Below, piece by piece: positions 2,473-49,372 of a stretch of DNA of 64,000 nucleotides. The notes under the pieces were generated by a model. The model searched no databases, was not told where the DNA came from, and saw only the letters and a program-made list of their open reading frames with translations. The position numbers were made by a program, and so were the translations under genes. Source of the DNA: an uncultured Nitrososphaeraceae archaeon (lineage in GTDB: Archaea; Thermoproteota; Nitrososphaeria; Nitrososphaerales; Nitrososphaeraceae). The stretch spans positions 25,001 to 89,000 of the forward strand of contig CAWGVG010000006.1 in NCBI GenBank assembly GCA_963825865.1, in the 5' to 3' direction. Each line of letters begins with the position of its first letter. Positions within the stretch are counted from its first letter, which is position 1.

Positions 2473-2797
2473 TACTGCCTAACATAATTTGATACAACTG
2501 TCTAAAGATTTAGTTCAATATCAATTTAGCTTGAATATGTTATGAATATACTCCGTATTCACTTTGATGTCTGTTGCAGTTTTAAACGATGCTTATAGAA
2601 ATGAAAAGGATGCTAATATTCGAGAAAGGATTTTGCTGGTAAGACGTGTCAGAATGGATAAGAAAGAAGCAGCCAGTGTATCTGAGAAAGAATTTCATAG
2701 ATCTAGATGGTGGGCTTACAAATGGCTAAAGAGATTTGATAATACTGGTTTGGAAGGACTAAAGAATAAGCATAGGAGCGGTAGGCCTCCAGAAGTA
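2473..2797 (+). mobile_element. IS630-family element A, left part (interrupted)
   Basis: End TA|TACTGCCTAACATAAT is an imperfect inverted repeat of the end at 49372; orfA 2564 reads WAYKWLKRF..GLEGL...RSGRPPEV and is cut at a TA (2796-2797). Confidence 0.85.
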
Positions 2798-3958
2798 AGT
2801 GAAGTGTCTGAATTTATGTCGTTATTTGTTCATTACATAACCTAGATTTGGAAATAGTTAAAGCTTAGTAAATGAGATATTTTCATTCTGTGAATCATCC
2901 TTTCAAACTCAAACTTACCATAGGACAGAGGAACAAATTAAAGTCATTTATGAAGAATACGGGTAACAAAAAAGAATACCGCAGGCTACTGGCTATACTC
3001 CAAAAAGCTGAAGGTAGAACTTACGAAGACATAGCAAATGAACACGGAGTCAGCAGCAGGTCTGTACAGAGATGGGTTGCTGCCTATATCCAAAGTGGGA
3101 TAGATAGAATAAAGATGAAGAAACCTGGCGGAACAAAATCTGGCATAACAGATGAAAACAGAGAGATTATTCTATCAGCATTATTTAACGACCCGCACAT
3201 CTTTGGTTATCTTAGAAATACATGGAGTCTGAGATCACTTGCAAACTGTCTGACAAATGAGCTAGGAATCCCAATCAGTTTCAAGCACCTGCAGCGAATA
3301 ACAAAAGATTTAGGAGTTAGGTGCAAAAGGCCAAAACTGGAATTGCTACATGGAGGAAAGGATTATGAAGAGGGAAAAGAGAAAGTGCAAAACTACAAAC
3401 AGATAGCTTCAGCTCTGAAAAAAAGGGAGTTGTAGTAGCATTTGAAGATGAGACTATTATAACACAGAAACCTTGTATTCGAAAATCCATGAGTTTTGAA
3501 GGTGAGCAACAAAGGATAGAACATACTGGTAGTAGAAAGAAGTTCTCTGCATACATATCCATGGTATGGCCTGAAGAGAAATTAATGACGTATGATTTCT
3601 ATGATAAAATGGATTCTACGAATACTATCGACCATCTAGAGAATCTCAAGACAAACATTATGAAAAATGATTGGTGGAAAAGACTGGTACTCATATGGGA
3701 TAACGCTTCATATCATGTAAGCCTAATGGTACGGAATTATATCAATGCACAGAAAGAAGACTGGCTGACCATAATCCACCTTCCAAAGAAAGCACCATAC
3801 CTAAATCCGAATGAAAGGAAAGTAAACCAGCAAATAAAGTCAGATGTATGTGCGAATAGATTCTATGAACATATGGAAGACCAGAAAGCTGCAGTATCAG
3901 AATATTTGGACAAACGATTTGGAAGATGGTATGACGACATTAGTTATGACACTTGACT
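2798..3958 (+). mobile_element. IS630-family element B, copy 1
   Basis: TIRs AGTGAAGTGTC / GACACTTGACT flanked by TA; orfA 2872-3435 (HTH) and orfB to 3956 (FEDET, WDNASYH, LNPNE) joined by an A7GGG slippery site near 3418. Confidence 0.95.
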
Positions 3959-3960
3959 TA

Positions 3961-4715
3961 GCACCATTTGCTGATGAGAAGGGAATTGCTTTACTTTATA
4001 CAAGAGGCTTTCTGACAGATTACGTATCAGTTCTGTCTGAAAAGTCAGCTAAAGAAGGATGCAATATTGCTATCTTAACTGACTTTGATGACTCTGGCTT
4101 GGCCATTGCAAGGGAAGCGCCAGACGCCTATAGAATAGGTATAGATTTTGAAACGCTAGAAGATTTGGGGTTGGATATTGAAGATGTAGAGGAAGAATAC
4201 AATCCAGGAAACCACTTAAAGACACTGCAGCTTGCGGCAAACATGCAAGCGTATATTCAAAAGAAATTGTAAAATATGTTGAATACAAGCGTGTAGAGAT
4301 TAACAGCGTCGTAGAGGCACTGAACGATAATTCTAGATTCTGGAAATGGATTATCAAGAAGTTAAGGGATCATTTTACTAGCCGAGATTACAACCGTGCC
4401 GTTGATATTCCAGAGTATGTGATGCCTGAATGTCTCGAATCTTTTAATGAGAAAGTAAAAGAAAAAGGAGTTGCAATATTAAAAGGGCGGCGTTTGAAAC
4501 TCCAGGACCGTCTCTCTGATATTGGCCCTGGATTTCTATTTGATCGAACTGATAAGGTATTATTGAAAAAAGGAGATGATGACGTTATGACAATCAGTAA
4601 ATACGAGCAAACGCTGGCTGATCAGTCACGACATATTATCGAATCCGATGAGACTATGAAACCAATCTTGGATAAAATTGAAGATTTGGATAACGAGTTG
4701 ATAAAAAATGACTAA
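3961..4715 (+). pseudogene. C-terminal part (Toprim DxD + tail) of Topo VI-A/Topo VIII-like topoisomerase; continues the gene cut at 47414
   Basis: APFADEKGIAL...ILTDFDDSG...; frameshift near 4230-4260, then KRVEINSV...FWKWII..L...F..RDYNR, matching paralog 25342-26409 (TDYDASG, RVEIDAV, RNYNR). Confidence 0.85.
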
Positions 4716-5007
4716 TGATATAACAAATGCAGCAGGATTAGGAAATTGTGAGACGCCTAATTGTGGCAATCCTCTAAAACCATCTTACTATCTTATTTAT
4801 CCTCTTACTAAATATGTTGGAGAATACATTATAGCTAAATGCAGAACGCTAGAAGACGAAACAAAAAATGAGCCAAAAATTGCCGAGTTAGTTAAAGTCA
4901 AAGTGCGTACAGCATTAGATCCAGAACATATTCTTGTTGATAGGAGCAGTGGCGCGGAGGTAACGATAGAGCAGTATGCTGAGGATAGCGCAAGAATTGG
5001 GTGTTAA
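4708..5007 (+). CDS. Hypothetical protein with N-terminal Cys motif
   Basis: ORF overlapping the topoisomerase stop; CETPNC. Confidence 0.55.
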   Translation: MTNDITNAAGLGNCETPNCGNPLKPSYYLIYPLTKYVGEYIIAKCRTLEDETKNEPKIAELVKVKVRTALDPEHILVDRSSGAEVTIEQYAEDSARIGC

Positions 5008-5011
5008 GAAT

Positions 5012-5038
5012 TGCAATAAATTTATCAGTCTGTGAGTA
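5012..5038 (+). promoter_or_regulatory. 27-bp conserved upstream motif, copy 1
   Basis: TGCAATAAATTTATCAGTCTGTGAGTA; near-identical copies at 19416-19442 and 21937-21963 (minus strand), each about 28 nt before an ATG. Confidence 0.6.
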
Positions 5039-5065
5039 AATATACGTAATGTCTGTAATATCTAA

Positions 5066-5534
5066 ATGGGCGCAAATAATAACAAGTTAGTAATCCAAGA
5101 TCGAAGGCAAAAGATATGGACTCTTTTAACTAGAGGAATGAAAGGTTATGAAATTGCCAGAGTTAAACACTACACCAGCGACTATAAGCCGAGATATTCA
5201 GTATTTAACATCACAGTCTCAGAATTTTTTAAATGATCTGGCTAAAGAAACGCTTCCTTTCATGTATAAGAGTTGTATTGACGGCATAAGAGAAGTGTTA
5301 AAGGAGTGTTGGAATATTTATGAGTCTACCGACGACGAGCAGCAGCAAGTAAGCTATTTCCAAAGATTAGCGGCGCTCAAATTGGCCAAAGAATGTAATG
5401 AAGCACAGTTCAAATTATTGTCAGAAGGTCCGTCGATTATGTATGTGCAGAATTTGGAAGAGAAACTGATACAGATTGAAGAGATACAACAGCAACGGCA
5501 ACAACCACCGCAGGTAAACCAAATATCTCGATAG
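5066..5534 (+). pseudogene. HTH-domain protein (possibly TerS-like), frameshift near 5158
   Basis: MGANNNKLVIQDRRQKIWTLLTRGMKGYEIA/ELNTTPATISRDIQYL; 2-nt deletion relative to the copy at 20392-21909. Confidence 0.75.
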
Positions 5535-5555
5535 GTAGTATAGTATTATTCTACC

Positions 5556-6143
5556 TTGAAGACAGATACTTACGTTAAAAATATGGTAAAAAGACTTGAC
5601 AACCTTCTACGTGGATTCTCACCTTCTAGTTCAAAGTGGGACATTGCTGGCGCTGATGGTGTAGGTGGTAGTAAAACAACAATTTCTCAACAAGAATTAG
5701 AAGAGTTAGACGATATTGAAACACAGCGAAACGGTGAACCTCATAGGTTTTCCGATTACAGGGCCGCCAGGGCAAAGAAAACAGCCCCAGCAGTTGGCCT
5801 AACCTATGAAGACGTTTACGACACTATAACCCAGGAAGAGTTAGACTGGGAGTTGAGGCGGCAGCTTAAGGTAGCACCAGAACAAAGATACAAGCATGAA
5901 AAATATCACTGGTATACGCACCCTTCAAGCTGGAATATGAGGGTGCCCCATAATAGGTATGATGGTAAAGGATGCACAGGTCAAGCTTGTATCCCAGAGT
6001 GCAGATATTATCCTGAGACTGGTAGGATAGAAGATTCAGAAGTTGTACAAAAGCATAGAGAACGTGAGAAACGTTATAGAGATAATAACGGTATAGTAAA
6101 GCCGCCTCACCCAATTGTGTATTATCTAGAAGGCAATTATTAG
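5556..6143 (+). CDS. Element-associated hypothetical protein
   Basis: 195-aa ORF; N-terminus MKTD...KRLDNLL.G.SPS.SKWD shared with 19836-20388. Confidence 0.65.
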   Translation: MKTDTYVKNMVKRLDNLLRGFSPSSSKWDIAGADGVGGSKTTISQQELEELDDIETQRNGEPHRFSDYRAARAKKTAPAVGLTYEDVYDTITQEELDWELRRQLKVAPEQRYKHEKYHWYTHPSSWNMRVPHNRYDGKGCTGQACIPECRYYPETGRIEDSEVVQKHREREKRYRDNNGIVKPPHPIVYYLEGNY

Positions 6144-7536: not shown

Positions 7537-7740
7537 GATTGACGTGTTAATAAGTTCATATCATTACTTAACCTTCTCATAAAATTCAACTTGCTGTTAA
7601 TGCTTCTCGCCTATAATTCAAGATACCTTTGAGCATCTTCCTTTGTTAAGAATTTGTTAGCTGGACCCAAGAATGACCAGCTTTCTTCATCGTATTGCTG
7701 CACTATCATCATCGTATAGAGCAGGTTTTGGTGATAATGA

Positions 7741-9942: not shown

Positions 9943-9944
9943 TA

Positions 9945-11097
9945 AGTGAAGTGTCAGGATATATGTCATAATATGTTTATTCCATGGTTTAAATTCTTAG
10001 ATGGATAAAGCTTAACAGATGTAGGATATTTTCATTATGTGAGGTCTGCTTCTAAACTAAATCTAAGCCGCGCACAGAAAATAGGTTTAGAATCACTTAT
10101 GAATAACACAACTAGCAAAAGTGAGTATCGCAGAGTACTGGCTATACTTCAAAAGAGTGAAGGTAGAGGTTATGAAGACATAGGACATGAACATGCAGTC
10201 AACATTAGATCTGTACAAAGATGGGTTGCTGCGTTTATTCATGGTGGGATAGAAGAAGTAAAGATAAAGAAGACACCGAGAGGATCGAAATCACGCGTAA
10301 CAGATGAAAACAAAGAGATCATTCTTTCAGTGTTATTTAATGATCCACATATCTTTGGTTACCTTAGAAATACATGGAGTCTAAGGTCGCTTGCAAGATG
10401 TCTTACAGATGAGCTTGATATTTCAATCAGTTTCAAGCACCTACAGAGAATAACCAAGGATATGGGGATTAGATGCAAAAGGCCAAAATTGGAACTGTTA
10501 CATGGGCCGGATTATGAAGAGGGAAAAGAGAAAGTGAAAAACTACAAGCACGTAGCATCAGCTCTTAAAAAAAGGAGTGATGTTAGTATTTGAAGATGAA
10601 ACAACAATAACACAGAAACCTTGTATACGCAAATCGATGAGTTTTGAAGGTGAACAGCAAAAAATAGAACATAATGGTAGCAGGAAAAAGTTCTCTGCAT
10701 ACATATCCATGCTATGGCCAGATAAGAAGTTGATGTATGACTTTTACGATGTTATGAACTCCGATAATACCATAGACCATCTGGAGAATCTCAGGAAATA
10801 TGTCATGAAGATCAGATGGAAAAGACTGATACTCATATGGGATAATGCTTCTTTCCATGTAAGCCGAATTGTGCATGACTATATCAAAATACAGAAGGAT
10901 CGGCTAACCATAATTTATCTTCCAAAGAAGGCTCCATACCTAAATCCAAATGAAAGAAAGGTGAACCAGCAGATAAAGTCATATGTGTGTGCAAATAGGT
11001 TTTATGAAAATATAGAAAACCAGAAAGCTGCAGTGTCGGAATATCTCGATAAAAGATTTGGAAGATGGAATAATGACATTTAATGTGACACTTGACT
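9945..11097 (+). mobile_element. IS630-family element C (diverged relative of B)
   Basis: Same TIRs AGTGAAGTGTC/GACACTTGACT; TA duplicated within a CTAG target; orfs 10039-10593 and 10577-11083 with an A7GG slippery site. Confidence 0.95.
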
Positions 11098-11264
11098 TAG
11101 TTGCTGCTATTGTATTATCTGCAAAGCTACTAACTACTCTACAACTATGTTATTAACTCCCACCCGTATTACCTTTCTTTGCATATGCTGACTGTTGGTG
11201 TAGCATTGGAGTTGTGTTAATTGTTGTTACAAGCTTCACCAATATTGATCATCTGATTCATGTT

Positions 11265-12473: not shown

Positions 12474-12637
12474 CTTCAGATGTTACTGTCATCTTCTTCT
12501 AAACCTATTCCATAATCAGTCTGTATTGAATGCCTTTCAATAGATGCTTATTCCCAGTTAGCGCACAGATCTTAGAGAAATTGTGCCTATTCTGTTTCTT
12601 CATCTAAATCTATGATGCGACATACATTTTCAATAAA

Positions 12638-12826
12638 AAGTACAGAGACAGATTAGATATATTTTCAGAAATCCTTGAGCTGGGAAATGGCAATGAAGTA
12701 AGAGTTGGTAATATTTCACATAAATCTGGTCTTCCATATAATCTGCTAAAGAAACACTTGAAAATACTGCTATACAATAATTTATTGGAATATCATAAGG
12801 AGGAAAAAACCTATAAAACGACTAGC
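12638..12826 (+). pseudogene. Archaeal wHTH regulator truncated by IS481
   Basis: KYRDRLDIFSEILE...YNLLKKHLKILL...EKTYKTTS ends exactly at the IS end. Confidence 0.75.
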
Positions 12827-13854
12827 TGTTGTACTTACACAGATGGGTAACAATTTTGATTACCTACATAGGTTACACTTTCTTGCTTCCTTTTTGTATA
12901 TGTCTTAGATTTAATTAACCTTTGTACAAACCTTTCAGAAGGAGTAAGACCATTTATTCCACCATGTTCCCTAGTTTCATTATATGCTTTGACAAACATA
13001 TCATACCTTAGTTTTCCATCATCAATACTTGTTATTTCTTCAACTGTCAAGAACTCATTCTTTACAATCTTGTTATATGCTTCTATCTTTCCTTGTAACT
13101 GTGGATATGAATTTGGAATTGGTTTATCCTTTATGTTATTCTTATATGGAAAGTGTTTGAATAGTTTAGATGTAAACTGCTTACCGTTGTCATGCATAAC
13201 TTTCCTGGGCTTTCCGTTATCCATAATCCACTCCTCTAGTACATTCAAAACATCAATGCTCCTCTTTCTTTCAGACCACTTGCTAGCAACTTTTCTTGAA
13301 CAGTCATCTATACAGCTTATCATGTAATTTCTTGTGCTAGAACAGCGTACGTAAATGGTCCAAGTATATCCATTTGAAGCATGTCATTTGGATGTTTCAT
13401 TGCAAATCGCTTATACTTTCTATTATTCTTTACCTTACAGTTTAGAACGTTGAGAGTATGTTTTTTCAATGTCTTGTATATGGTTCTACTGCTCAATGAT
13501 ACTCCAAGTCTTTTTAATCTGAACCTGATTCTACTAGTACCAAAGGTCTTTAATCTTAAATCAAGTATTGTTTCTTCTATTTCTTTAGATACTTTGGTTT
13601 TGATGCTATGAGGCCTTCTAGATAGGTCTTTCAACCCGTCTATTCCGTGCTCTATGTATCTATTTTTCCACTTGTAATATGTCTTCCTAGATATTTCGTA
13701 TTTATTGCAAATATCGCTAATACTATTACCAGTCCATTCATGTTCATGAATGAGATTGAATTTTGTTCTAATTTCTATAGAGATTTCCACTTCCTAGCAG
13801 AAGTGTTACCTATGTCTGTAAGCTATATTGTTACCTATGTTTGTAGGTACAACA
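12827..13854 (-). mobile_element. IS481-family element, copy 1 (no TSD)
   Basis: TGTTGTA..TACAACA ends with repeated GGTAAC boxes; HTH + rve DDE (QMDILG, IDDCSR, HDNGKQF, GKIEAY); flanks ACTAGC / ATTAAG do not match. Confidence 0.9.
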
Positions 13855-15168: not shown

Positions 15169-16353
15169 TTGACGATTGGACATAAATCCAGACTCTATTT
15201 TTTGCAAATATATATTGATGAATTAGGCTAAAGCTATCCTTTGGATGTCTGAATTTGTGATGACATATAATAAAACATCCTCAAAGGACAGCACATGATA
15301 GTTCAGAATCCATCCTTATTGGTATTCTGTATTTGATAGGCTTGATACCATGGCCAGAATCACAAAAGATGAAAAAAAGAGGTAGACCATACGTCTATTC
15401 TTCTACTGTCATACTACGATGTTTCATAGTCAGATTGTGGTTTAGAATGGATTCTAACAACGCATTACATGAATTCCTAGGAATGGATTACCCTTACAAT
15501 AAGAAGATAATGAAAAGATGTGGTCTTACCCAAATACCAGATAGACGAACATTTGACAGACGTCTTAAGACCATATCCATAGACATCAAGGAAAGGATTG
15601 CTACTATGACTAGTCTATTAGTAAATGGGAAGATAATAGACCCTTATATTGTTGCAATAGATAGTACATTGCTCAAAGCCAGAGGACATGTTTGGCACAA
15701 ATCATCTATGGATAAAGGAATAGTACCACGTTCAGGTATAGATACAGATGCCAGGTGGGGATTCAGTCATACCAGAGGTTGGATATTTGGTTACAAACTA
15801 CATTTGATATCAAGTACTGGTTCTACCATAGTACCTTTAGCAGCAGATTTTACAACTGCTAATGTACAGGATAATCAAATGTACAATCCTATGATATCAT
15901 CATCATCATCATCTCTGTTCCTAGAAACATGTTTCATGATAGGTGATTCTGGGTATGACGACAATAAACTATATGATTTGAGTACTAAAAGAGGATTTGA
16001 ACTGGTATGTCCAGTACAAAGGTACAAAAATACCCCAAAGAATAGACTAGAGCTGATACAATTCTATGAATCTGAGTTAGGACAGGCTATTTACTCTTGG
16101 AGAAGTAAATCGATAGAACCACTAATAGAACATATTAAATCTATTTTTAGAATAGACCCATTACCGGTAAGAGGCTATCAGAAGGCTGCTGGAATAGTAC
16201 TTCTGTCAGTACTACTGTATCAGATCCTTGTCTACTACAATTATAAAACCAGACCTAGTCAACGACCAAAATCAATCAAACACATGTTATGTAGTTAATG
16301 CAGCACTAAATGATAGATGAAAAATATAGAAATGAATTATGCCCATGTCTCAA
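15169..16353 (+). mobile_element. IS4/IS5-superfamily (DDE_Tnp_1) element with intact transposase 15333-16298
   Basis: AIDST, GYKLH, IGDSGYD, WRSKSIEPL motifs; imperfect TIR TTGACGATTGGACATAA / TTATGCCCATGTCTCAA, probable TTAA target duplication. Confidence 0.9.
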
Positions 16354-24832: not shown

Positions 24833-25345
24833 CTATTCTATTCTATTCGTAGCAAGACCAGTAGAATATGGCTCTTCCTTAGTATTGGTAGTCTTATGGA
24901 CTGCTCCTGTTCTTAGGTTTGATTCTTTACGTCTACGGTCAAAATACAACCTCCTCGCAAACTGTTGCAATTGAATCGCATATTGCTCGATTCTAGTGAT
25001 ATCATTGATATTCTGACATCTCTTATCATCTGTCATATACTCATACAGTTTATCAAATGGTGCTAACAATTCATCCAAAGTTTCTACTTGGGTAGCAGCA
25101 GTAATGTCATTATTATTGCTATTGCTGTGATATTGTATATTAATCGGATTAATAGGGTTATCTATATCTTCATTTCTTTGAACATACTCTTTTACCAAAT
25201 TGACAACCAATTGGCTAAAGCTGGTAGATATGCCTTCTTGTTTCTTTGCTATTTGCTCAGCCTTGATTAAGGTTTCTTTCTCAGATATTGGGCAGCTAAA
25301 TGACTTTGGAAAATGTAGATTGTCGGTAGTCCGTCCACCTGTCAT
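24833..25345 (-). CDS. Protein with N-terminal RHH-like motif, coupled to the topoisomerase gene
   Basis: KSFSCP...AEQIAKK...SFSQLVVNLVKEYV; 4-nt overlap. Confidence 0.6.
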   Translation of the reverse strand: MTGGRTTDNLHFPKSFSCPISEKETLIKAEQIAKKQEGISTSFSQLVVNLVKEYVQRNEDIDNPINPINIQYHSNSNNNDITAATQVETLDELLAPFDKLYEYMTDDKRCQNINDITRIEQYAIQLQQFARRLYFDRRRKESNLRTGAVHKTTNTKEEPYSTGLATNRIE

Positions 25346-32957: not shown

Positions 32958-35875
32958 CTACCTCTCCAAACGGTTATCAAAGTCCTCTGGATTTGGGTAA
33001 TTGGGTGAATCTGGATGAGACTCTTCTCTATGCTTTACCCGTTTGATATTACAGTCGTTTCCGTCGTTGCCCTCGAAACAATCATCACAATAAAAACACT
33101 TGAATATTTTTCTATAACTGTCCTCATCATTGTTATTTGCTAACACACCATGGTCTTGGGAGACTTGGAATATATCGTCCGCATCGTCCGTATCGTTCGA
33201 ATCCTTGGTATCGCTAGAGATTTGAGCGTAGTTTTCAGCATTATCGTCGGACGGTATTTCATTATTATCGAACGGTATATCGTCCGCATTTTTTATAATA
33301 TCGTCCGAAATATAGCTAGATATATCGCTAGAGATTTGAGCTTGATTCTGGCCTGCAGCCGATCCGTTGGACGGTTCGGACGGTTCGGACGATATTCTCC
33401 AGATCTTCACGACCTTAGACCTTTTTGTCTGATCAGTGAAACCTTTCTCTATTATGATGCCAACTTCTCTAAGGTTTGCCTTTACTTCATTGATCCTCCT
33501 GCTCAGGCTATTAGGCGCCTTTGGCCATGACCTATTTTGGAAGGTTGTATTTATGTGCAGATTGCTGGCAACTGTATTTAGTTCTTCAAGCAATTGTGTC
33601 ATAGTTCCTTTCCATAATTTGCCTTCCCTATCATCTACGAATTGCTTGATGACATTACCTACTACATGCGCATTTATCGTCTCTTCAGATTGAAGGTTTA
33701 TGTTATCGTCATATGCCTTGGTAAAAGCGCCTTCTTTATTGTCCATGGCAGCGAGATATGATTTCACCAATTTCAGCAAAGTCTGCAAATCTTGGATACG
33801 ACTTTAATTCAATTCCTCCATTACTTATAATCCTCAATACTTTGGACAGGATATCAAAGATATACCCTAGCAATTTTGGTCTTATTTCCTCAAATTCTTG
33901 CCATATAACCTGCAATTTCCGTCTTTTTTCCTTGGGTATTGGTTCAAGTTCTAGGATAAGACCCCAATCGATAAGATCTGACTCTTCAGCACCTAGGTTT
34001 ATCCCATTAATCCCTATACACCGCTTGAAACTATAGATCACGTCCTCATCGTCTGTGAACAATTCCCTTTTAGAAAATGCATCCCCAGTTACACCCCTAC
34101 ACAAAGCATCTGATACCTTTTTAGGGATATCAGACACATTCTCATAATAGCAGACATAGTTATGCATCATTTGCTGTGCCAACTGTGCAATATCTGTAGG
34201 AAGTGATAGCGTCATTGCAGGGCTTGGGTCCACTAGAATTCTTAACAACTGTTGAAATGTGGTCTTTGCTGCTTTTGGCTCTCCATGCAACATTAATGCG
34301 GGTTTTATGATATCTGGGTAGAACATTGCAATGATGTAGCACTTTAACAGTAGTTTTTTATCCTCACCTGAGACATTGATCAATTGCATGAACTGGTCAA
34401 AGATATCTCTGGGATATTCTCTTACGGGGTAAACTTGTGGTTTTTGGTCTGCTATACCTTCTAAAGATTATAGGTGCTTGGCCTATGGTCCAACCATTTT
34501 CTTCTGAAGAAGTAGTTATCTTTACAGATTGACAATCCTTATTTGCCAAATCGTAATAGATCGTGAATGGACCCTCTTTGATCTTGGAAACTCTCAACTC
34601 AAGTTCCTTTCTAACACCTTCAAAGTCCGCCCTTGCCTGCAATATGTTGAGGATACTCGCTATATGCTCGCCGTTTAACATGGCGCTTTTGCCAGATGCT
34701 TCATAGAATTTATGGCAAAGCCAATGCTTGAACCTAGCGCCTTTGAGTTGAAGGGTTTCTAAATGGCCATCTATATTTACAGTTGCGTAAGGGTTCCCAA
34801 ATTGATCTTGAAAGAATTCAGGGCAATGGCCTTCAACTAGCTCTATGGCCTTTTGAGTCCAGGCTTATCTGGTTTATTCTTAGCCAGACCCTGAGAGGTT
34901 TGAATAATATCGTCCGAATCACCCATATCGTCCGACGACGGCGACATTGCAGCCTTGTTAGTTCCATAGATAAACATGGTTGCATCACGCCATTGTCTAT
35001 CAAATTCACTATCGTCTAGCGGGGATACAATGCTTACCGTTCCAATCTCTAGCAAACCCCTTTATTGTCTCTAAATCTAGAATGTTTTGGTTGCGTTTGA
35101 TAAGTGATTCCATAGTGCGCAGTAGTGCCTCGTGACGGTTATGACCTTCATATACCTTGAAATCTGACTTGAACAGATCTTCAATTGGTATCTGATTTGG
35201 ATTTTTTGATGATCTTCCATTTCCATTTTCTTGTAGATATGAAATACCATACCTCTTGCAAACATTATCTATATGCTTGCCTCAAAATCGTCTGCAATAA
35301 CTGGCTCTTGTGTTCCTATTATCTGGAATTGTTGTCCATTCTTATGCATAGAAGGAGAGCAGAATAATATTCCATGTTCGCCTAAGCCTTTAACTTCGAT
35401 TGCGGGGATCTCATGCTCTCTATTTTATCCGTTAAACCTGCTGTTGGTTTTATTTTTATCATTGCTCTTCTTTGTAAATGGCTTGTATGAATAGACATAG
35501 ACGTGCGCTCTATTTGTGTCATCTGGATGCTGCCTCAACTAAAGTCCATTGGCTTAATTCTTTAATTGAAATGGCTTTACCATCATATTTGCAAACCTCT
35601 TCTATAGCCTTTGAGTTATCTAGATCAATTCCATTAAGGTTTAACCCTGGTTTTTGATTATTATGCCATACCTTACCTAAAATAACAGCCATACCGTCTG
35701 AAAATTTGTTTTCAGATTTCCATTGGTTATGAAGTTCTTCAGGAATTGGTTTATCTTGCCATTGGTCCCAAGGAACTACTGGTTTTTTATTTTTAGTATC
35801 TGCAGGTATTACATTTACGCCTATATCATAACGCCAAAAGTCAGTCCATTCGTTGATTGTTGCAATACTAGCCAG
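32958..35875 (-). pseudogene. Prim-pol (bifunctional primase-polymerase) fused to a helicase-like ATPase, multiple frameshifts
   Basis: CTG start; GVNVIP.DTKNKKP...W..WQ, GIDLD, RAHVYVY, IEVKG....LFCSPS.HKNG; LHGEPKAAKTT, YENVS, GINGIN; C-terminal CFYC..H Zn finger. Confidence 0.8.
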
Positions 35876-37643: not shown

Positions 37644-39140
37644 TCACTTATCCGCTAGTTTTAAAAGACCAGAGGAGAACAAAGATTGCGCCATTGTATT
37701 GAACTGTTTATTATCTTGAGTATGACATAATCCTCCAATTAGTTTTTCTAACATGGACTGCATATTGTCGAATTGCTTTTGCATCATAGTTAATTGGTTT
37801 TCCTTCTGCTTCTGTGACTCTAATGCTTCTTGGTATCCTTCAAAGCTCATTATCATTTTACATTTGCTGCAGAACTTGCTATCTACAGTATTACCTTCAT
37901 TGCAGTTAGGGCACATTTTGGGATTTAGGGTATCAATTGGAACATTATTTTTATTCTTTGTGACAATGCCATATGCTTCAAGCAATGATTCAGAAGATTC
38001 ATTACCAAAATAGTGGATGTATTTTTGTACCATGTTGCTATTCATTGTCCAACCAGCATGTTGGTTCAATGTGTTGGATTTTAGCTTTGTAGATTTTTCA
38101 GTTAATGCTGAATGGCGCCTTATGTATGGGTTAAATGGTTTTGTGAGTAAGGTTTTGATTTTCTCTTTGTCTTCATTTGATACTGTTGCATCTTGTAATA
38201 ATTTAGGAAAAAATTCTTCTTTGTAGTCTTTGTAAATCTGCTCCAGACCACCAGTAGATAGTGGTTTACCTGTATTACTCCTACCTAGTCCTACAATAAG
38301 TGGAGATTTAAGGTTATTACGGCTTGGGTGATTTGATAGCCATTCTTTGATATAAGGTATTGATTGGATTAATGGTATATGTCTTGAACCAGTTTTACCG
38401 TTGACTAGTACCTCTGCATACTGATACTTACCATTGTCTACAGTTTTGAACACGATATCTTTTATTTTCAGGTTCAATATTTCATGGGGACGTGCAGACA
38501 AATCTCTAGCCATTGTATGATAGCACCGATCTCGTTTGTTTGTAACCCATTTTAAGAAAAGAACATCGTCTTCTTGCGTCCATAGATCAGATGGTTTGTA
38601 GCAACTTACCTCTTTTCTCTTTAGCTGGGGTACACCCATAATACATGCAGGTTTTCTCTCATTTTCAGATAGTTCATTTCTTCTTTTAGGAGTATCTACA
38701 TTAGGATAACAAAGCCATTTAAAAAATCTAAATAATATGATACGTTTTGTATTGTAACTCCCTATCCATTTATGCAATGGGTCATCATTTTCTGATTTTC
38801 TACAACTGTCTAAATATAACAAAACATCATCCCTTGCCATATCCTCAAATCGTTTTTCTATGCCAACAGACTTTGAGAGTTCTGACAGAAATTGAATTGT
38901 GTATTTTATGTAGCTGAGTCTAGGATTAACCTCTCTTTTCATCGCTATAATATATTCAGATATTGTCAGGGCGTTTTCTTTAGATAATCTACTCCTATCT
39001 TTTAGGACTAATTCGCAAAATTTGGCCGTAGTAAAACCTTCTGTTGCCAAAGTAATCTTTCTATCTAATACGACATCTCTTTCTTCATCCTTTGACGCTG
39101 CTAATATTGCTTCTACTGCTTTGTTTGAACGCCTGACCAT
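37644..39140 (-). CDS. Tyrosine recombinase/integrase with C-terminal Zn ribbon
   Basis: SARPHE, GKTG, YIRRHS, AGW, KYIH; CPNC...CSKC. Confidence 0.93.
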   Translation of the reverse strand: MVRRSNKAVEAILAASKDEERDVVLDRKITLATEGFTTAKFCELVLKDRSRLSKENALTISEYIIAMKREVNPRLSYIKYTIQFLSELSKSVGIEKRFEDMARDDVLLYLDSCRKSENDDPLHKWIGSYNTKRIILFRFFKWLCYPNVDTPKRRNELSENERKPACIMGVPQLKRKEVSCYKPSDLWTQEDDVLFLKWVTNKRDRCYHTMARDLSARPHEILNLKIKDIVFKTVDNGKYQYAEVLVNGKTGSRHIPLIQSIPYIKEWLSNHPSRNNLKSPLIVGLGRSNTGKPLSTGGLEQIYKDYKEEFFPKLLQDATVSNEDKEKIKTLLTKPFNPYIRRHSALTEKSTKLKSNTLNQHAGWTMNSNMVQKYIHYFGNESSESLLEAYGIVTKNKNNVPIDTLNPKMCPNCNEGNTVDSKFCSKCKMIMSFEGYQEALESQKQKENQLTMMQKQFDNMQSMLEKLIGGLCHTQDNKQFNTMAQSLFSSGLLKLADK

Positions 39141-40731: not shown

Positions 40732-41226
40732 CAAGATAAAGTACTATGAAGTATTGACAGAAAAAAGAAAAGATCTCATGTGTATAGATCTAAAACAGCC
40801 ATGAAACATCTAGTTGTGTGTTTTTCTTAATGTCTTTATTTATCTAAACTATTTTATCTTAATTGCGGATTTAGACTCAACTTTATATAATTTTGTCTTA
40901 GTCTGGGAGGCCGTGCTGGATTGTTATATATATTCACAGAATTTAGCATATACAAGTATATACATAAGACGTTGTTTGAAATATACATCAGTCCAAGTAT
41001 CAGAATGGCCTAGACGATAGATTGATTTGGGTCGGATAATATCGTTCGGATCGTTCGAAATAAGAGAAGAACCTATCAAGCCTTGTGGTATATCTATCTC
41101 TGGTTACTGGAGAATTCATCGCGTACTTAAATATTGAATAGGGATCTAGGCATTCTATCAATTCTTTTTGTTTTCACCATATTGTTTGTAAAACCCACTA
41201 AAAAGGAGTGATATCACAATGGGCCC

Positions 41227-41259
41227 AAGGGAGTTCGAAGCCTCGGTTCAAACTCCTTT
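41227..41259. other. Candidate integrase att/core site (13-7-13 inverted repeat)
   Basis: AAGGGAGTTCGAA-GCCTCGG-TTCAAACTCCTTT, 53 nt upstream of the integrase. Confidence 0.45.
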
Positions 41260-41312: not shown

Positions 41313-42582
41313 ATGAGAGATCTATACAACAGACAAAAGACATTAGCAAACTGGATTAAGAGAGTAAATGAAGATCTTATAGATGCCGACAAAGCAGATG
41401 TTTTAAAACTCATAGAACATATGCAGGATAGAGAAAAAAGCATTCTTTGGATAGTTCGGTGTATAGTCAACCTTCTTTCCATAAGAAGACAGCTTGGGAA
41501 ATCATTTAGAGATGCTACTAAAGATGATATAAGGTTATTTTTGAAATGGATGGAACAGAAAGGCTACAAGGCATCTACTAACGAAAAGTTCAGACAAGTT
41601 TTGAAACTATTCTATAAGATCATATATGGCAATAATGAATATTATCCAGAGCAGGTAAAGTGGTTCTCCTCAAAACTTGGAAAAGAAAAGACTGGTAAGG
41701 AAACCAGTATGGATATGGCAGAATATTTGGAGGAAAACGAGATTCAAAGAATAGTAGAAGTGGCTTGTACAACTCAAAAGAAGGCTTTTCTTGCGTGTAT
41801 GTATGAGAGTGGAGCAAGGCCAGAGGAATTCTTGAGACTTACTAATGCAGATATAAGGATTGATTCTAATGGCGCAGTTCTTATGCTCAGAGGAAAAACA
41901 GGAGAGAGAAGAGTGAGAATAATATCTTTTGCAAAACTGCTGCAACAATGGATAGAAGTACATCCACTCAGATCCCAGAACTATTATCCGATTTGGATAA
42001 GTGAAGCTACCAACTTCAAAAATAATGCACTAGGACTCCGGGGTGCTGAAAAGGTAATTGAAGAGGTCTTACCAGGAGCAGGACTAACGAATAAACATGC
42101 ACGTTTGTATATATTGAGGCACTCTAGAGCTACACACCTTGCTAAACACCTTACAGAAGCTCAAATGTGTGTATTTTTTGGCTGGGTACAAGGAACACAG
42201 GTAGTTAGGCGTTACATACATCTATCAGGTAAGGATGTAGACAATGTCCTCCTGGCAATAAATGAAGGAGACAAGGCAAGAGTAACAGAAGAGTATCAAT
42301 TAAAACCCATAAAGTGCACTAGATGTTCTGAAGCTATTAGTCCAGGAATCGAACTTTTGCTCTAGGTGTTCATTACCAGTAAATTTAAGTAAAGAACTCA
42401 CAAGAGAAATGGAACTTGAGAAAGAGAACAAAGAGCTTAAAGAAAAGTATAACCATGATATGAAAATACTTCGTGATGAGATGAATCAGAAATTTAGTCA
42501 TATTATGACATTGATACAGCAAAACCCAATGTTGGCACATGTCAAGCCAGAAGTACTTACAAAGAAAATAGATAGCAAATGA
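41313..42582 (+). CDS. Tyrosine integrase (frameshift near 42350 in the Zn ribbon)
   Basis: YESGARPEE, GKTG, YILRHSRAT, FGW, RRYIH; CTRC / FCSRC tail ends TGA 42580-82. Confidence 0.9.
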
Positions 42583-44079: not shown

Positions 44080-45408
44080 ATGATTTCCAGCAACCTAATA
44101 AAAAATGCACCAATAAGCTCTAGCCAAAATGCACCATTAGATCTATTGGGACAATGTAGCGGCAGCGGCAACAGGGTGAAAAGGCGTTACACCAGAGCAC
44201 ATCATATCCAGAATCTAGCTATCAGCCATTATAACAAGAATGGCAAACCCATAACCTATGCAGATTTACTATCAAGCGGCATTGCACATAGTAAGAAACA
44301 AGCTCAAGATACACTCAAACGTAGTCTTCATAGAGATATTGTTTTTACTGTAGAGAAACACAAACCGCAGAAATACTATCCTACATGCCTTAAGTCTGAA
44401 ATTTTGAAAAGGAAACTAGCAAAGAATGCACCAGTAAAGGTCACAGGGGTAGGGTTCTCTGACGAACCTCATTTTTCGGTTAAAACTAATAATGATAGGA
44501 CAACAACTAGCAACGGATGCAATGAATCCATAGTAGCCAATCAGTCATTGGAAGGTTATGTCCTGCCATTGCTGCCTTCGGCGCCATTGCATATACACAA
44601 AATCCAATTCAAGCTAAAGATTATACCAGACTGCTATGCTGAACTTGGTAATCTTTCCATAGATAGTAGGAACAAGGGAAAAGAGCATGTTGAAGTTATA
44701 GGCAAAGTCAGAGTCTCTTATCGCTTCTACCCAAATGGCACAATTCTAGTTTTTACCGAGAGTAGCAACAATCCATTCAAGCTTGAAGATGAAATAGACC
44801 GTACCAGCATTATTGCATTCTTTGGTCAAGTACGTGATAGACTTGTTACTTTTCTTGCAGATACACATGAAAGGATAATACCGGGAATATTAGAATGGGA
44901 GCTAACGCAGTGTGATATAAATAAGGATATCACGATCGGTGAAGCTCTTCAGTATACAGGGCTAAAGGTGCAGGTTAAGCATTTTGACCGCCTGTTTAGA
45001 GTCTACATAAAATCCATTGGTAAGGACACAGCTTGCAGGGTAGAAGAATCGCTCAATCCAATGAAGCCTGCTGTTCAAGTAATAAGTGAAATTTTTGCTA
45101 ATCCAAATGATAGAGAACATCTGCAGCGGCAGCAGTCTTCTTCTGATGGTAGTAGTAGAAGGAAAATCGATGAAATTCATGATATGGTGAAGGGCCTTCT
45201 TAAGCTGCATAAGCTCGAATCCAGCCATTGGAGAAGAACTACTAGAAGGAGGGGGGTCGTAATTTTATGTCAGAAAACAGCCATGCCTCCAAATCGTAAT
45301 CAAAATATAATCCCCATCTTCCTTTCTCATAGAACAAGAGCAAGAACAAGTTTTTTCCTCAGAGAAGGCTGTAATGGATTTTATCACTTTAAGAGGGATT
45401 CAGACTAG
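44080..45408 (+). CDS. wHTH + Rep_trans-like replication initiator/relaxase (putative)
   Basis: N-terminal wHTH-like region; LTQCDINKD, LFRVYIK, CRVEE resemble Rep_trans motifs; 3' end probably extended by a frameshift. Confidence 0.55.
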   Translation: MISSNLIKNAPISSSQNAPLDLLGQCSGSGNRVKRRYTRAHHIQNLAISHYNKNGKPITYADLLSSGIAHSKKQAQDTLKRSLHRDIVFTVEKHKPQKYYPTCLKSEILKRKLAKNAPVKVTGVGFSDEPHFSVKTNNDRTTTSNGCNESIVANQSLEGYVLPLLPSAPLHIHKIQFKLKIIPDCYAELGNLSIDSRNKGKEHVEVIGKVRVSYRFYPNGTILVFTESSNNPFKLEDEIDRTSIIAFFGQVRDRLVTFLADTHERIIPGILEWELTQCDINKDITIGEALQYTGLKVQVKHFDRLFRVYIKSIGKDTACRVEESLNPMKPAVQVISEIFANPNDREHLQRQQSSSDGSSRRKIDEIHDMVKGLLKLHKLESSHWRRTTRRRGVVILCQKTAMPPNRNQNIIPIFLSHRTRARTSFFLREGCNGFYHFKRDSD

Positions 45409-47414
45409 AACAGGAGTAGATGAGAAGCATTTACCTTTATTTGTATTAAAGGAAATGATGGACAATGCTTTAGACCATGTGGAGAAATCAGGCGGTGGCA
45501 ATACTACTACCACTCAGCAGCAACCTAAAGTCACCGTAGCCATAACTCTTGAAGAAAATTCTCTACTCCATATCAGAGTATCTAATTCTAACCATTCAAA
45601 CAAAGGCGTATTTACAGAAGGTAATGTAATGAAAATATTTAGCTATACTAGTTCTATGAAGGAGCAAGCGGAACCAATTCAAAATCACAAGGGGTGCGCT
45701 TGGAGATGCCTTCAAGGAATTATTATCTATACCTTATGCACTTGCGATAGAAGGGCTTGGATTTGACAAATGGGAAAAACCATTAATCATTAGGGATAGT
45801 GCTAGTAGAAAAGAATTCATCGTCAAGCTTAAGGTCGATAAAGCAAACCAGGGGATTGAACCCATATTTGCTGTTGAGGATTTGTCATCCGATAACAAGT
45901 GGTATTATCTATCATCCTTATATAAAACAGACAAGATACACGAAATACAAGTTGATCTTTTCTTGCCTTTTGATTCGCGTGGCGCCGCCGAATCTATGAT
46001 TAGAAAATTTAAAGACCTACTAAATCAGTATTTGTATAATACACATGTTGTCTTTAATTTCAGGATTGATGATCCCGCTAATCGAAACATCTGGATGAAC
46101 CTTGAAACACAGCAGGCACAGAAAATTGTTACCAATACCAAGAAAAATAATAATAAACTTCAACAGCAAGAACGACAACAGCAGCAACTTACGAGCATTC
46201 ACTACTATACATTTACTGAATTTGAAAATCTACTATATGGCCTTGAAGACAATAACGCATATGCGTATGATAAACTATATCGAGTATTCAGAGAATGCAC
46301 AAACCTAAAGAAGACAAACGAATTAAAGTCCCTTACAGTTGGAGAATTAAAGAATGCAGATAAAGATACAAAATTAAGATTGTTTAGAAGTTTAAGAAAT
46401 GCCCTTCCACCTAAGGAGAAATTAGACCTACCGCTCGGAGTTAGCAGTAAATCCAAAGATAGGAAAGCAGCAATCAGAAAACGAATTGAACATATGGGAT
46501 ACTCAGTTATTAATTTCAACTACAAATGTACAGAAGGACATGCAAAGTATACTTCTCAAGACCTCAAGGGTGACAAGACATCAGTAGCGAGAGCAATTCC
46601 TGCTACTACTGCCAATGAAAATTTTGATAATACAGTGCAATTTCCATTCTTGTTTGAAGCAGCAATCGCTACAGTAGTTGGAAACTTCAACAGAAAGGTG
46701 TATCAGCTAATCAACAACTCACCTAGATACAATACCACAGTATTCAAAGTAGATTTGGGAGAGAATATGTTTAGCTGGCTTAACAAACAGGGCAGCATTC
46801 AATATGGATATTCAATCGAAAATATTCTTGACAAATACGGGTATACGGGAAATCACGATCCTAAGAAACCAAGATCTAGGAAACCTAACAGCATAATTAT
46901 GGTTAATCTGATTTCTCCAAAACTAGAGTATAAAGACTATGGCAAGACTTCTATTAATTTGGAGCCTTTCAGAGACGCAATAGGCGAGACACTATACAAG
47001 GTATGTAGTGGTGGTGGTGGCCGCTCTGGCGACGACAGGCCATCAAAGGTTTCTGTTGTATTAGAAATCATGACTGAAAGGAAACAGAAATGGTATTCAC
47101 TAGACACAGCATCGGAAAGGCAAAAATATCTATGGACCCAAAGTGATGGATTTTACGCCAGTCGCAAGCGATTGATCGAATATGGTTATACAAACGATGA
47201 AATCGATAGAGAATACATAACGGGATTGATCAAAGATATCTGCGAGAACAAATTAGATGTAAAGTGTGAAGACATAGGAATTATCGCAGCAGATAGGGCG
47301 CAGCTTTACTTTAAAGGGAAGTGGATGGATGTTGGCCTTAAAGAAATCAGAGAATTAAGTCTCTATGGAATCGACCTGCTAATTATAGAAAAAGAAGGTA
47401 TTGCAGAACAACTA
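45374..47414 (+). pseudogene. Fused Topo VI B-A (Topo VIII-like) topoisomerase, N-terminal part, cut by IS630
   Basis: LKEMMDNALD (N box), frameshift near 45655, SKRNQFKITRGALGDAFK (G2 box), NLISPKLEYKDYGKTS (transducer), WTQSDGFY, LIIEKEG. Confidence 0.85.
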
Positions 47415-48576
47415 AGTGAAGTGTCTGAATTTATGTCGTTATTTGTTCATTACATAACCTAGATTTGGAAATAGTTAAAGCTTAGTAAATGAGATATTTT
47501 CATTCTGTGAATCATCCTTTCAAACTCAAACTTACCATAGGACAGAGGAACAAATTAAAGTCATTTATGAAGAATACGGGTAACAAAAAAGAATACCGCA
47601 GGCTACTGGCTATACTCCAAAAAGCTGAAGGTAGAACTTACGAAGACATAGCAAATGAACACGGAGTCAGCAGCAGGTCTGTACCAGAGATGGGTTGCTC
47701 CTATATCCAAAGTGGGATAGATAGAATAAAGATGAAGAAACCTGGCGGAACAAAATCTGGCATAACAGATGAAAACAGAGAGATTATTCTATCAGCATTA
47801 TTTAACGACCCGCACATCTTTGGTTATCTTAGAAATACATGGAGTCTGAGATCACTTGCAAACTGTCTGACAAATGAGCTAGGAATCCCAATCAGCTTCA
47901 AGCACCTGCAGAGAATAACAAAAGATTTAGGAGTTAGGTGCAAAAGGCCAAAACTGGAATTGCTACATGGAGGAGAGGATTATGAAGAGGGAAAAGAGAA
48001 AGTGCAAAACTACAAACAGATAGCTTCAGCTCTGAAAAAAAGGGAGTTGTAGTAGCATTTGAAGATGAGACTATTATAACACAGAAACCTTGTATTCGAA
48101 AATCCATGAGTTTTGAAGGTGAGCAACAAAGGATAGAACATACTGGTAGTAGAAAGAAGTTCTCTGCATACATATCCATGGTATGGCCTGAAGAGAAATT
48201 AATGACGTATGATTTCTATGATAAAATGGATTCTACGAATACTATCGACCATCTAGAGAATCTCAAGACAAACATTATGAAAAATGATTGGTGGAAAAGA
48301 CTGGTACTCATATGGGATAACGCTTCATATCATGTAAGCCTAATGGTACGGAATTATATCAATGCACAGAAAGAAGACTGGGCTGACCATAATCCACCTT
48401 CCAAAGAAAGCACCATACCTAAATCCGAATGAAAGGAAAGTAAACCAGCAAATAAAGTCAGATGTATGTGCGAATAGATTCTATGAACATATGGAAGACC
48501 AGAAAGCTGCAGTATCAGAATATTTGGACAAACGATTTGGAAGATGGTATGACGACATTAGTTATGACACTTGACT
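47415..48576 (+). mobile_element. IS630-family element B, copy 2 (direct repeat of 2798-3958)
   Basis: Near-identical sequence, same TIRs, TA flanks, a few indels. Confidence 0.95.
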
Positions 48577-48578
48577 TA

Positions 48579-49372
48579 TCAGAAGAAATATCTACTGGGA
48601 TAAGAAGAGAATTGTCAAAAAATCAATCAGGATGGATGGCTAAAGAAGTCATGAATTTGATATACGAAAGAACAGGAGTCAAATATCATGAGGTTCACAT
48701 TTACAGACTATTACACAAATGGGGTTTCAGTCCTAAAGTACCAAGAATGAGATTTGTTAATGCTGCATCAAAGGAAGACAAAGGCAAATTTCGAAAAAAG
48801 CTAAAAGGATAATCTCGCATATACCTAAAGGATTCACTGTTGCTGTTGCTGCTGATGAATCCATCTTTACACACGATTCTTTGATTCGGAGGAAGATGTG
48901 GACTGTAGATAGAATAAGACCAATTGTAACAATGACTGGATCACATCAAAGGACTTGTGTATTTGGTGCCCTATGTATAGACGGTAGACAATTCTTCCGA
49001 CAATATGATAGCTTTAACCAATACACTTTTCTGGATTATATCAAACGTATGCAAAAGAGATTTGGCCGACTGATATTGTTTATCGATAGAGCACGTCAAC
49101 ATCATCGCTCCAAGATGGTAAGAAAGTACATTAAAGACAGAAGAGATGTATTAAAAGTGATATACTTTCCAAAAAAAAGGTTCGTCTGAATTTAATGCTG
49201 TTGAAGAATGCTGGAGACAGGGAAAATATGATCTGCTAGTATCGAAATACTATCCTAGATTTGAAAATCTAACATATGCCATAGCTAACTACTATAGAAC
49301 AAAGCGTTTCAAACTACACATAGTCAAATACCTATCGAGGGACATGAGTTAGCGAATTAATGTTAGTTGGTA
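48579..49372 (+). mobile_element. IS630-family element A, right part
   Basis: SEEISTGIRRELS..W..KEV...GVKYH...RLLHKWGFSPKVP continues orf 2564; ADES, FIDRA, EFNAVEE; end ATGTTAGTTGGTA|TA. Confidence 0.85.

Follow-up and report, generated by a model that had tools for sequence, protein, structure and literature searches.

Two IS630 copies with reciprocally exchanged flanks bracket a 43.5-kb segment in a Nitrososphaeraceae-like archaeon

We analysed a stretch of 64,000 nucleotides (the window) from an uncultured Nitrososphaeraceae archaeon, in which two copies of one insertion sequence, IS630-B, lie 44.6 kb apart in direct orientation with 99.5% identity: B1 at 2796-3960 (1165 nt) and B2 at 47413-48578 (1166 nt). 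The segment between them measures 43,452 nt, which rises to 44,617 nt when one IS is included. The outer flanks are the two parts of another element, IS630-A, and the inner flanks are the two parts of a type IIB topoisomerase-like gene. The features are as follows.

2471..2795, plus strand: 5' part of IS630-A, with the left TA, the inverted repeat and the first 78 transposase codons; 99% to the intact C23:13441-13768
2796..3960, plus strand: IS630-B copy 1 (B1), flanked by TA on either side; its two ORFs meet at an A7G run
3961..4715, plus strand: 3' part of the topoisomerase-like gene, with the Toprim DxD motif; DUF2399 (E 6e-5)
4979..5642, plus strand: HTH-gene segment with an inverted repeat at 20302-21996; 97-99% over 4979-5341
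9943..11099, plus strand: IS630-C, single copy, in CTAG; 78% to IS630-B (B1)
12619..12826, plus strand: 5' piece of a gene, cut at the IS481 end; 96.6% to C5:33666-33869, where the gene continues
12827..13854, minus strand: hybrid IS481 copy (NF033577); 6-bp target duplications that do not match, flanks from two sites
15170..16352, plus strand: IS5-like element, an ordinary insertion with matching target duplication; empty site bridged in public run X3
20854..21883, plus strand: IS481 copy, an ordinary insertion with matching target duplication
24833..27440, minus strand: second set of type IIB topoisomerase-like genes, diverged and part of a relic element; DUF2399
32958..34681, minus strand: replicase-like gene, frame-broken; 36-60% to stretches of a 1381-aa ORF that G013 carries in a tRNA-integrated element
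37644..39140, minus strand: tyrosine integrase; tblastn matches at 36 genome loci
40993..41057, no strand: 65-bp patch with an exact match at C5:72789-72853; it is here that related-strain contigs depart from the window
41057..41245, minus strand: tandem-integration junction, comprising a tRNA(CAT) 3'-end core, a conserved arm and the first 33 codons of a third-family integrase
41313..42365, plus strand: tyrosine integrase reading away from the core; PF00589 (E 5e-14), 74% homolog in G053
45374..47412, plus strand: 5' part of the topoisomerase-like gene, with the Toprim glutamate just ahead of the IS
47413..48578, plus strand: IS630-B copy 2 (B2), TA at both ends; three single-base indels relative to B1
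48579..49374, plus strand: 3' part of IS630-A, with the right inverted repeat and TA; 97.7% to C23:13769-14566; HTH_33 and DDE_3

Both B1 and B2 carry the 13-bp terminal inverted repeats and the TA at each end that mark the IS630 family, and HTH_29/HTH_32 matches were found in the 5' part of IS630-A. The best match of both IS630-B ORFs was NF033545 (IS630; E 6e-21 and 2e-17, each half scoring below the whole-protein cut-off), with DDE_3 matched as well. The A7G run at the ORF border of B1 may serve in frameshifting, and the three single-base indels of B2 are probably read errors. The two copies also differ by 3 substitutions, at which every allele is shared with other copies of the family, and the nearest family member is the C3 copy for B2 and the C59 copy for B1. 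On these allele patterns, B1 and B2 are read as two pre-existing, independent copies with different family haplotypes. The 13 full copies in the assembly are mosaic, 65 of 120 site pairs failing the four-gamete test, and all of them sit within contigs; the C48 copy adjoins a truncated IS481 and has 80 nt of its right flank in common with the C26 copy. Transposition in this family, as described for ISY100 and IS630, is cut-and-paste with TA duplication, the elements excising by double-strand breaks (PMC2170065).

When the outer flanks were joined across the TA, the 70 nt shown were letter-for-letter the same as in the intact IS630-A on C23, and the inner join agreed around the TA with the intact Toprim gene on C2; in the C3 paralog of the latter, a single open frame runs through the insertion site. 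As a control, the left and right flanks of the 13 full copies were paired in all 169 combinations, and each pairing was checked for contiguity in a paralog. Only four were contiguous, namely B1-left/B2-right, B2-left/B1-right and the self-pairs of C10 and C43, whereas the self-pairs B1/B1 and B2/B2 had no support among the 169; the test is informative for these four copies, the other 9 of 13 lying outside its reach. The first-pass annotation had claimed that the outer flanks join in frame to restore IS630-A, that the inner ends likewise restore the topoisomerase Toprim domain, and that each IS copy has flanks from two different insertion sites; the first two are borne out by uninterrupted sequence at 11 other loci and at 3 loci, respectively, and the third by the control. 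It had also likened the inner CTAG target to that of IS630-C, which does lie in CTAG; the likeness carries little weight, as CTAG is the site of just 2 of the 11 other copies and the outer site reads GTAT.

B1 and B2 have exchanged their flanks reciprocally and exactly, which is the mark of IS x IS homologous recombination, and the exchange is most simply explained by such recombination between two independent IS630 copies. A classical composite transposon is ruled out, since both inner ends derive from a single TA site, split in two, within the same gene. Because the copies are direct and nearly identical, the segment could be looped out again. The event is of a known kind and its mechanism is textbook; nor is it special, as such swaps recur in the assembly.

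The split gene belongs to a set of topoisomerase-like genes at 9 loci in the genome, of which the C2, C3 and C50 paralogs run uninterrupted through the insertion site. Its 5' part had zero matches in the profile library and carries what we take to be an ATPase N-box-like motif. The loss of frame near 4233 probably reflects an error of assembly, and in public contigs of a related copy an extra base stands at this position. The single public contig that bridges the two halves carries C2-paralog alleles at 6 of 6 sites compared, and therefore represents no independent empty allele of the locus. The C3 paralog has EKEG and DFDxSG motifs together with an RVEINSV box, and a by-eye comparison with the signatures given in PMC7671362 found the Toprim acidic motifs and the T2BI-like box of Topo VIII. 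The second set (24833..27440) matched the phrog_6247 topoisomerase (E 3e-5) and PRK04342 (E 0.002), with zero PDB sequence matches.

Altogether, the segment encodes two integrases and one replicase-like protein along with two sets of Topo VIII-like genes; a SIR2-like gene is also present. No core gene was recognised in profile searches, and the 23 proteins scanned gave zero matches to capsid or conjugation proteins. The replicase-like gene, for which context would suggest a primase/helicase role, had no Pfam, NCBIfam or PHROG match; it is in pieces within an indel-rich assembly, which may be read error. The composition of the segment is average: its GC content is 35.3% vs 35.5% for the genome, and 35 of 86 equal-sized genome pieces deviate more from the mean tetranucleotide profile.

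The junction near 41.2 kb bears on where the segment came from. A tally made for 41218-41245 gave 40 of 201 genomes, G092 counted, the G092 locus being left out of the layout comparison and no conclusion depending on it. The same layout of integrase, core, arm and truncated integrase is seen next to host genes in G053 as well, and the arm sequence was found after intact tRNAs in other genomes; in the window, no tRNA gene was found. An unused attP was considered for 41218-41245 and dropped, because the core is followed by the arm and an integrase stump of another family and the tRNA end is missing. A separate circular replicon would be expected to show an unused attP or to lack a chromosomal junction, whereas this att site has the form of a chromosomal tandem junction. 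The average composition and the chromosomal-type junction make the segment look chromosome-derived. In public runs of related strains, 39.2-41.0 kb is present at about 99%, and homologs of 41.5-47.3 kb occur at 94-97%.

The hybrid IS481 at 12827..13854 is, by its mismatched duplications, a candidate for a second crossover. The gene piece that it cuts at 12826 is presumably winged-helix-like, and the 3' part of this gene was not found in the assembly, including at any contig end. The mismatch, seen at 4 IS481 loci, could also stem from an unrelated deletion. As the segment holds further derived joints (12619, 40992 and 6729/7627), the second crossover is not pinned down.

Public data offered partial comparisons. 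Among the matches listed there were 24 public read runs, with a best word share of 0.29 and none at half; four were compared over 36000-52000 and two over 2000-21999, and within these ranges no contig or short read from the related strains spans an IS with both flanks. Over 49373-51382, a contig of run X3 has 163 extra letters at its left that would fit an empty IS630-A site, an observation that we do not use as evidence. Metagenome scans with a pattern near 40.97 kb and with the protein at 49689-50672 gave zero matches. No genome of the same genus was found in GTDB; partial matches occurred in 5 of 41 and 35 of 151 genomes of relatives, with 68-70% identity for the left-flank gene, and these relatives are too distant for a synteny comparison to be usable. 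A title-level search found no published work that reports a plasmid or a swap of this type from the archaeal group, and according to a 2019 survey no plasmid was known from the phylum (PMC6563490).

Three other reciprocal swaps were found in the assembly, this one being the fourth. The survey covered three IS5-like families with long target duplications (39 copies), a 42-copy family of 1047 bp with a 3-4-bp duplication being left out of mismatch scoring. Of the 39 copies, 13 were scored as mismatched (12 if one 10-bp duplication is counted by eye), and among them were 3 reciprocal pairs, C14/C26, C36/C46 and one within C29; this last pair, C29:85654(+)/116226(-), is a plain inversion on one contig. 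In two families of similar length and 99% identity the mismatch rate was 3/19 vs 7/11 (Fisher p 0.015), a difference that length-driven assembly error does not predict.

Based on this evidence, the present order probably arose through recombination at IS630-B combined with a second crossover at another repeat, which would have moved a 43.5-kb piece of the host chromosome into IS630-A. IS630-B would have inserted twice by cut-and-paste, once at a TA of IS630-A and, independently, at one in the topoisomerase-like gene of a decaying tRNA-integrated element; that region would have been bracketed by two IS481 copies, and one crossover in the IS630-B pair plus one in the IS481 pair would give the order seen today, presumably with RadA as the catalyst. 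Two overlapping inversions are the route that we tentatively favour, since each step is viable alone and the second nearly undoes the first. It is rather unlikely that a 44.6-kb circle was instead excised at IS481 and re-entered at IS630-B. Both routes predict a partner of the hybrid IS481 elsewhere in the chromosome, which was not found in the assembly (82% complete). As either route gives the same order, a free plasmid-like circle is not required.

The first-pass annotation had proposed a circle of about 44.6 kb with one IS that integrated by IS x IS recombination and could excise again, taken here as an independent plasmid-like unit with an IS630-B in its topoisomerase gene that entered by a single crossover. 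Its recombination between two IS copies stands, but the separate donor is not established, and we regard it as improbable. One crossover would suffice, the gene content given above, with no core gene recognised, and the 94-97% homologs in related strains agree with it, and Topo VIII is described as typical of free and integrated plasmids (PMC4117785, PMC7671362). However, the att site at 41.2 kb continues into the arm and stump of another integrase family, as in a chromosomal tandem array, with the tRNA missing; the composition is average, the gene families are scattered genome-wide as relics (36 integrase and 9 topoisomerase loci), the replicase-like gene is broken, possibly by read error, and capsid or conjugation matches are lacking among the 23 proteins. 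That the unit replicates on its own as a circle in a soil ammonia-oxidising archaeon, passing in and out via IS630 or existing free and folded into the contig, seems very doubtful; if true, it would be an Hfr/F-prime-like episome. An equally ordered product with TA on the outer ends could come from transposase, if the IS630-B copy in the topoisomerase gene had transposed aberrantly, taking its ends from a dimer or from two sister copies, and had thereby inserted the whole unit at the IS630-A target. Cointegrates are established for replicative IS (PMC5142620), and the C48 copy with its truncated IS481 and shared flank hints at aberrant events in the family, but this reading predicts twins where B1 and B2 differ at three family-polymorphic sites, IS630 excises by double-strand breaks (PMC2170065), and a circle or dimer donor would still be needed, so that we consider it highly improbable. 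A replicative cointegrate of the IS6/Tn3 type is ruled out, the copies not being identical and the family being IS630.

Misassembly, in which each IS truly lies between its own flanks and the assembler crossed at the 1.17-kb repeat and, if the segment is not a free circle, at the IS481 repeat too, appears unlikely. Two interleaved repeat pairs are a classic ambiguity in assembly graphs, which counts in its favour. The assembly is indel-rich and fragmented, with unmerged overlaps of 2.5-9.9 kb, duplicated stretches inside it and, in at least one place, an odd flank of high GC; near 58.0 kb C9 and C6 continue differently, and the public data yielded no spanning read. Consensus errors in a strain mixture can also produce mosaic haplotypes and swapped flanks. 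On the other side, the missing 3' half of the IS481-cut gene is absent from contig ends. All 13 full copies are inside contigs, own flanks are kept in the 2 other testable IS630-B copies and in 16 of 19 copies of the 1.0-kb family, mismatch rates vary with family and not with length, and B1 and B2 keep distinct haplotypes in place of one collapsed consensus. Since contig-end overlaps reach 9.9 kb, the reads were probably longer than the repeat. Private indels in IS copies, used as a depth proxy, were uninformative (0-2 inside vs 0-8 outside the segment).

If real, the recombination between B1 and B2 cleanly documents how insertion sequences shuffle the genome of a soil Nitrososphaeraceae-like archaeon; as the two insertions both hit multi-copy genes, each parental site is still legible. 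Taken with the three other swaps, it would indicate that IS x IS recombination moves segments of tens of kilobases and is able to sever integrated elements from their tRNA sites, which would explain the missing att ends in many elements of such genomes.

The locus resembles the IS x IS recombination described by He et al. 2016 (PMC5142620), in which recombination of direct copies yields circles or cointegrates, the event is placed from SNVs within the copies, and swapped flanks trace the crossover; here, however, the IS is a TA-targeting IS630 whose sites are read from two split genes and not from a duplication, the host is archaeal, and the donor is seemingly chromosomal rather than a plasmid. 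A segment with one IS between direct copies recalls the translocatable units and targeted conservative cointegrates of IS26 (PMC4196232, PMC7986276), an IS6-family element driven by its transposase, whereas nothing here shows transposase drive for IS630. Recombination between paralogous elements also underlies the archaeal chromosomal inversions of Badel et al. 2021 (PMC8371274), where identity over as little as 104 bp is enough for the pTN3 integrase to recombine two segments; those were single inversions in Thermococcales and other lineages, whereas two events with net translocation are proposed here. The split gene is similar to DNA topoisomerase VIII (PMC4117785, PMC7671362) in its Toprim glutamate, DxD motif and C-terminal box resembling RVELNAM, and in lying on a mobile-element relic, but it is frame-broken and IS-split. 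Finally, the tRNA-targeting tyrosine integrases, tandem site reuse and a heavy IS load, as in soil genomes, match what is described for thaumarchaeal cryptic integrated elements (Krupovic et al. 2019, PMC6563490); unlike these, the segment is a mosaic of relics from three or more families of integrase, and its boundaries are IS copies in place of attL/attR.

This analysis provided evidence that two direct copies of the insertion sequence IS630-B, which are 99.5% identical, have exchanged flanks. The two copies and the two integrases discussed below are as follows.

IS630-B copies and relic integrases in the window
2796-3960, IS630-B1, direct relative to IS630-B2, TA at each end
37644-39140, integrase, relic in the segment between the two copies
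41313-42365, integrase, relic in the same segment
47413-48578, IS630-B2, direct relative to IS630-B1, TA at each end

The left flank of B1 (2471-2795) and the right flank of B2 (48579-49374) are the halves of a different element, IS630-A, which is uninterrupted on contig C23 (99% and 97.7% identity, respectively), and a Toprim-domain gene, which runs uninterrupted on C2, C3 and C50, is split in the same way between the left flank of B2 and the right flank of B1. Among the 169 left-by-right flank pairings of the 13 full IS630-B copies, four were contiguous in a paralog, namely the two swapped B1/B2 joins and the self-joins of the C10 and C43 copies. These data confirm that the swap proposed in the first-pass annotation is exact and beyond chance; the CTAG target that it noted at the inner join is present and carries little weight, since CTAG occurs at only 2/11 other IS630-B copies.

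Elsewhere in the family, the IS630-B copies at C26:218029-219277 and C48:82109-83668 have 80 nt of right flank in common, the latter adjoining a truncated IS481 on its left. Public contigs from two sequencing runs of related strains (X1 and X3) join the IS630-B ends across an internal deletion of ~950 nt (window 2833-3784 and 47450-48402), which appears to represent a miniature non-autonomous derivative in those strains.

The segment contains the relics of two integrative elements, head to head, together with two topoisomerase-like gene sets, a broken replicase-like gene, accessory genes (SnoaL, DUF1059, SIR2-like) and IS elements. No tRNA genes were found in it, and none of the 23 proteins scanned gave a capsid or conjugation match. 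The element gene families are spread genome-wide (one integrase at 36 loci, the topoisomerase N-part at 9), GC content was 35.3% in the segment (vs. 35.5%), and its tetranucleotide distance was mid-range, with 35/86 pieces farther out. The SIR2-like gene (17518-18621) gave a weak match, well short of the cut-off, to NF042942, an anti-phage-associated model (E 5e-8). The 241-aa ORF at 22349-23074, which matched NF050131 below cut-off (E 2e-32) and had no Pfam match, resembles a zinc metallopeptidase whose motif has changed. A 65-bp patch (40993-41057) recurs without a mismatch at C5:72789-72853 and, less well conserved, at 51737-51773 and on C48; its short repeats, resembling those within the replicase-like gene (33365-33406, 34896-34937), are possibly of origin type.

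At 41218-41245, adjoining an integrase, lies a copy of the tRNA(CAT) 3' end. Of 201 genomes of the family, this one included, 40 match the arm beyond this core; ARAGORN called a tRNA at 9/18 foreign arm loci examined, and among the loci listed the arm is preceded by full tRNA-like sequences of several kinds. In two other genomes, G013 and G070, the arm leads to a third integrase family, of which a remnant remains at 41155-41057 (first 33 codons, 58% identical). In a further genome, G053, the same integrase-core-arm-stump layout stands beside host genes, which resemble those for coenzyme A synthesis; in the present assembly their orthologs map to C3 and the tRNA(CAT) locus to C10. Because the arm follows tRNAs and leads to a third integrase, and the G053 layout is beside host genes, the site is best read as a putative chromosomal tandem-array junction whose tRNA end was lost. 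The idea of an unused attP at 41218-41245 was tested on these loci and is disfavoured. In three studies, related strains yielded contigs that are ~99% identical over 39.2-41.0 kb and depart from the window at 40992. Locus L057 (G070:C55) passes from an archaeal element into bacterial-looking ORFs from about 5 kb and is probably a chimeric contig. The tRNA(CAT) core and arm occur once more as a relic at 413-486 in the left flank, in opposite orientation with no integrase alongside.

The assembly comprises 62 contigs (4.98 Mb, completeness 81.8%), the window being positions 25001-89000 of C6, and no same-genus relative was present among the genomes searched. Its gene content is suggestive of an ammonia-oxidising archaeon from soil. 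Some contig ends overlap unmerged by 2.5-9.9 kb and repeat copies differ by single-base indels, as expected if the underlying long reads were noisy. C9:1-3374 repeats window 58002-62091 at 98-99%, without 59326-60049 and with a different IS past 58002, being either a strain variant or an assembly duplicate. C7:37482-45259 is duplicated at 99% as C8:101690-109475, with a tRNA-Ala call inside, and an IS-like repeat of 1047 bp is present in 42 near-identical copies.

Target duplications of 6-10 bp, scored by script in three IS5-like families, matched at 16/19, 3/11 and 7/9 copies; in the second family, visual inspection added one copy with a duplication of 10 bp, giving 4/11. Since three reciprocal pairs were seen in these families (C14:68578/C26:262763, C36:30108/C46:28206 and C29:85654(+)/C29:116226(-)), the B1/B2 swap is one of four reciprocal swaps in this genome. 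The C14/C26 and C36/C46 swaps join copies on different contigs. The C29 copies (85654-87836(+), 116226-117408(-)), one of which is itself interrupted by another IS, are oppositely oriented and have exchanged target duplications with each other, which marks an IS-mediated inversion of about 30 kb within one contig. A one-way flank link connects IS copies at C21:7669 and C4:22218. For IS481, 11/16 rows matched; two of the remaining rows are the same locus, so that 4 loci are mismatched. The 1002-bp and 1117-bp IS5-like families are of like length and both 99% identical, whereas their mismatch rates are 3/19 and 7/11 (p 0.015), which favours biology over length-driven assembly error, short of proof.

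The best reading, which we consider probable, is that recombination between IS copies truly took place and moved accessory DNA of the chromosome. A misassembly of the B1/B2 joins would be in keeping with the duplications, the alternative continuation near 58 kb and a C49 flank of oddly high GC, and interleaving of two repeat pairs is a classic ambiguous case for assembly; however, all 13 full IS630-B copies are internal to contigs, B1 and B2 have separate haplotypes, and most testable same-size repeats are joined to their own flanks, leaving this explanation unlikely. A public X3 contig joining the topoisomerase halves (depth 9.14) carries the C2 paralog alleles at 6/6 sites compared and therefore confirms the gene family only, not this locus. 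An independent plasmid-like circle, part of the first-pass account, is quite improbable. The other part of that account, recombination between IS copies, is supported; a circle is not required for the present order, as inversions yield the same arrangement.

Concerning the reaction, PMC2170065 describes IS630-family elements as duplicating TA and excising via double-strand breaks, and on that account a replicative cointegrate is not expected. The two copies would also be twins in a transposase-made cointegrate, which is very improbable, since substitutions at 3279, 3295 and 3358 distinguish B1 from B2. Each allele also occurs in other IS630-B copies, the nearest being on C3 for B2 and on C59 for B1. 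In this family, 65/120 informative-site pairs failed the four-gamete test (10/31 pairs at most 60 columns apart, 55/89 farther apart), consistent with exchange between copies, to which consensus errors could contribute. Because twin copies are absent, the alleles family-wide and the mosaic exchange-like, recombination between two independent IS630-B insertions appears to be the best fit.

The ancestral sites would have been L-A5'-IS-A3'-R and P1-r-P2-T5'-IS-T3'-Q1-r-Q2, where r is a second repeat. Excision at r followed by re-entry at the IS would give L-A5'-IS-T3'-Q1-r-P2-T5'-IS-A3'-R, and inversion between oppositely oriented IS copies, then between the two r copies, would give the same order; either route predicts one hybrid r inside the segment. 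Relocation via two overlapping inversions is a tentative possibility, and via a transient circle a slightly weaker one. The IS481 at 12827-13854 has unlike target duplications (ACTAGC and ATTAAG, + strand), a left flank in which a gene ends earlier than its counterpart at C5:33666, and a right flank that is a repeat without the upstream sequence present at C6:3511 and on C12; from these flanks it appears to be a hybrid of the predicted type. Its predicted partner was not found in the assembly (81.8% complete), and the segment has further derived joints at 12619, 40992 and 6729/7627, both of which count against this hybrid as the second crossover. The second IS481 of the segment and its IS5-like element are ordinary insertions. 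An HTH gene segment, common to the tails of both relic elements, forms an inverted duplication (4979-5642/20302-21996; 97-99% over about 360 nt, then decaying) that could flip the intervening 15 kb.

Regarding the catalyst of the favoured IS x IS recombination, paralogous elements in archaea recombine by ordinary recombination or via an integrase, as described in the review PMC8371274, and by this precedent both may be candidates here. Flank exchange by IS x IS recombination is itself a known kind of event, as PMC5142620 describes.
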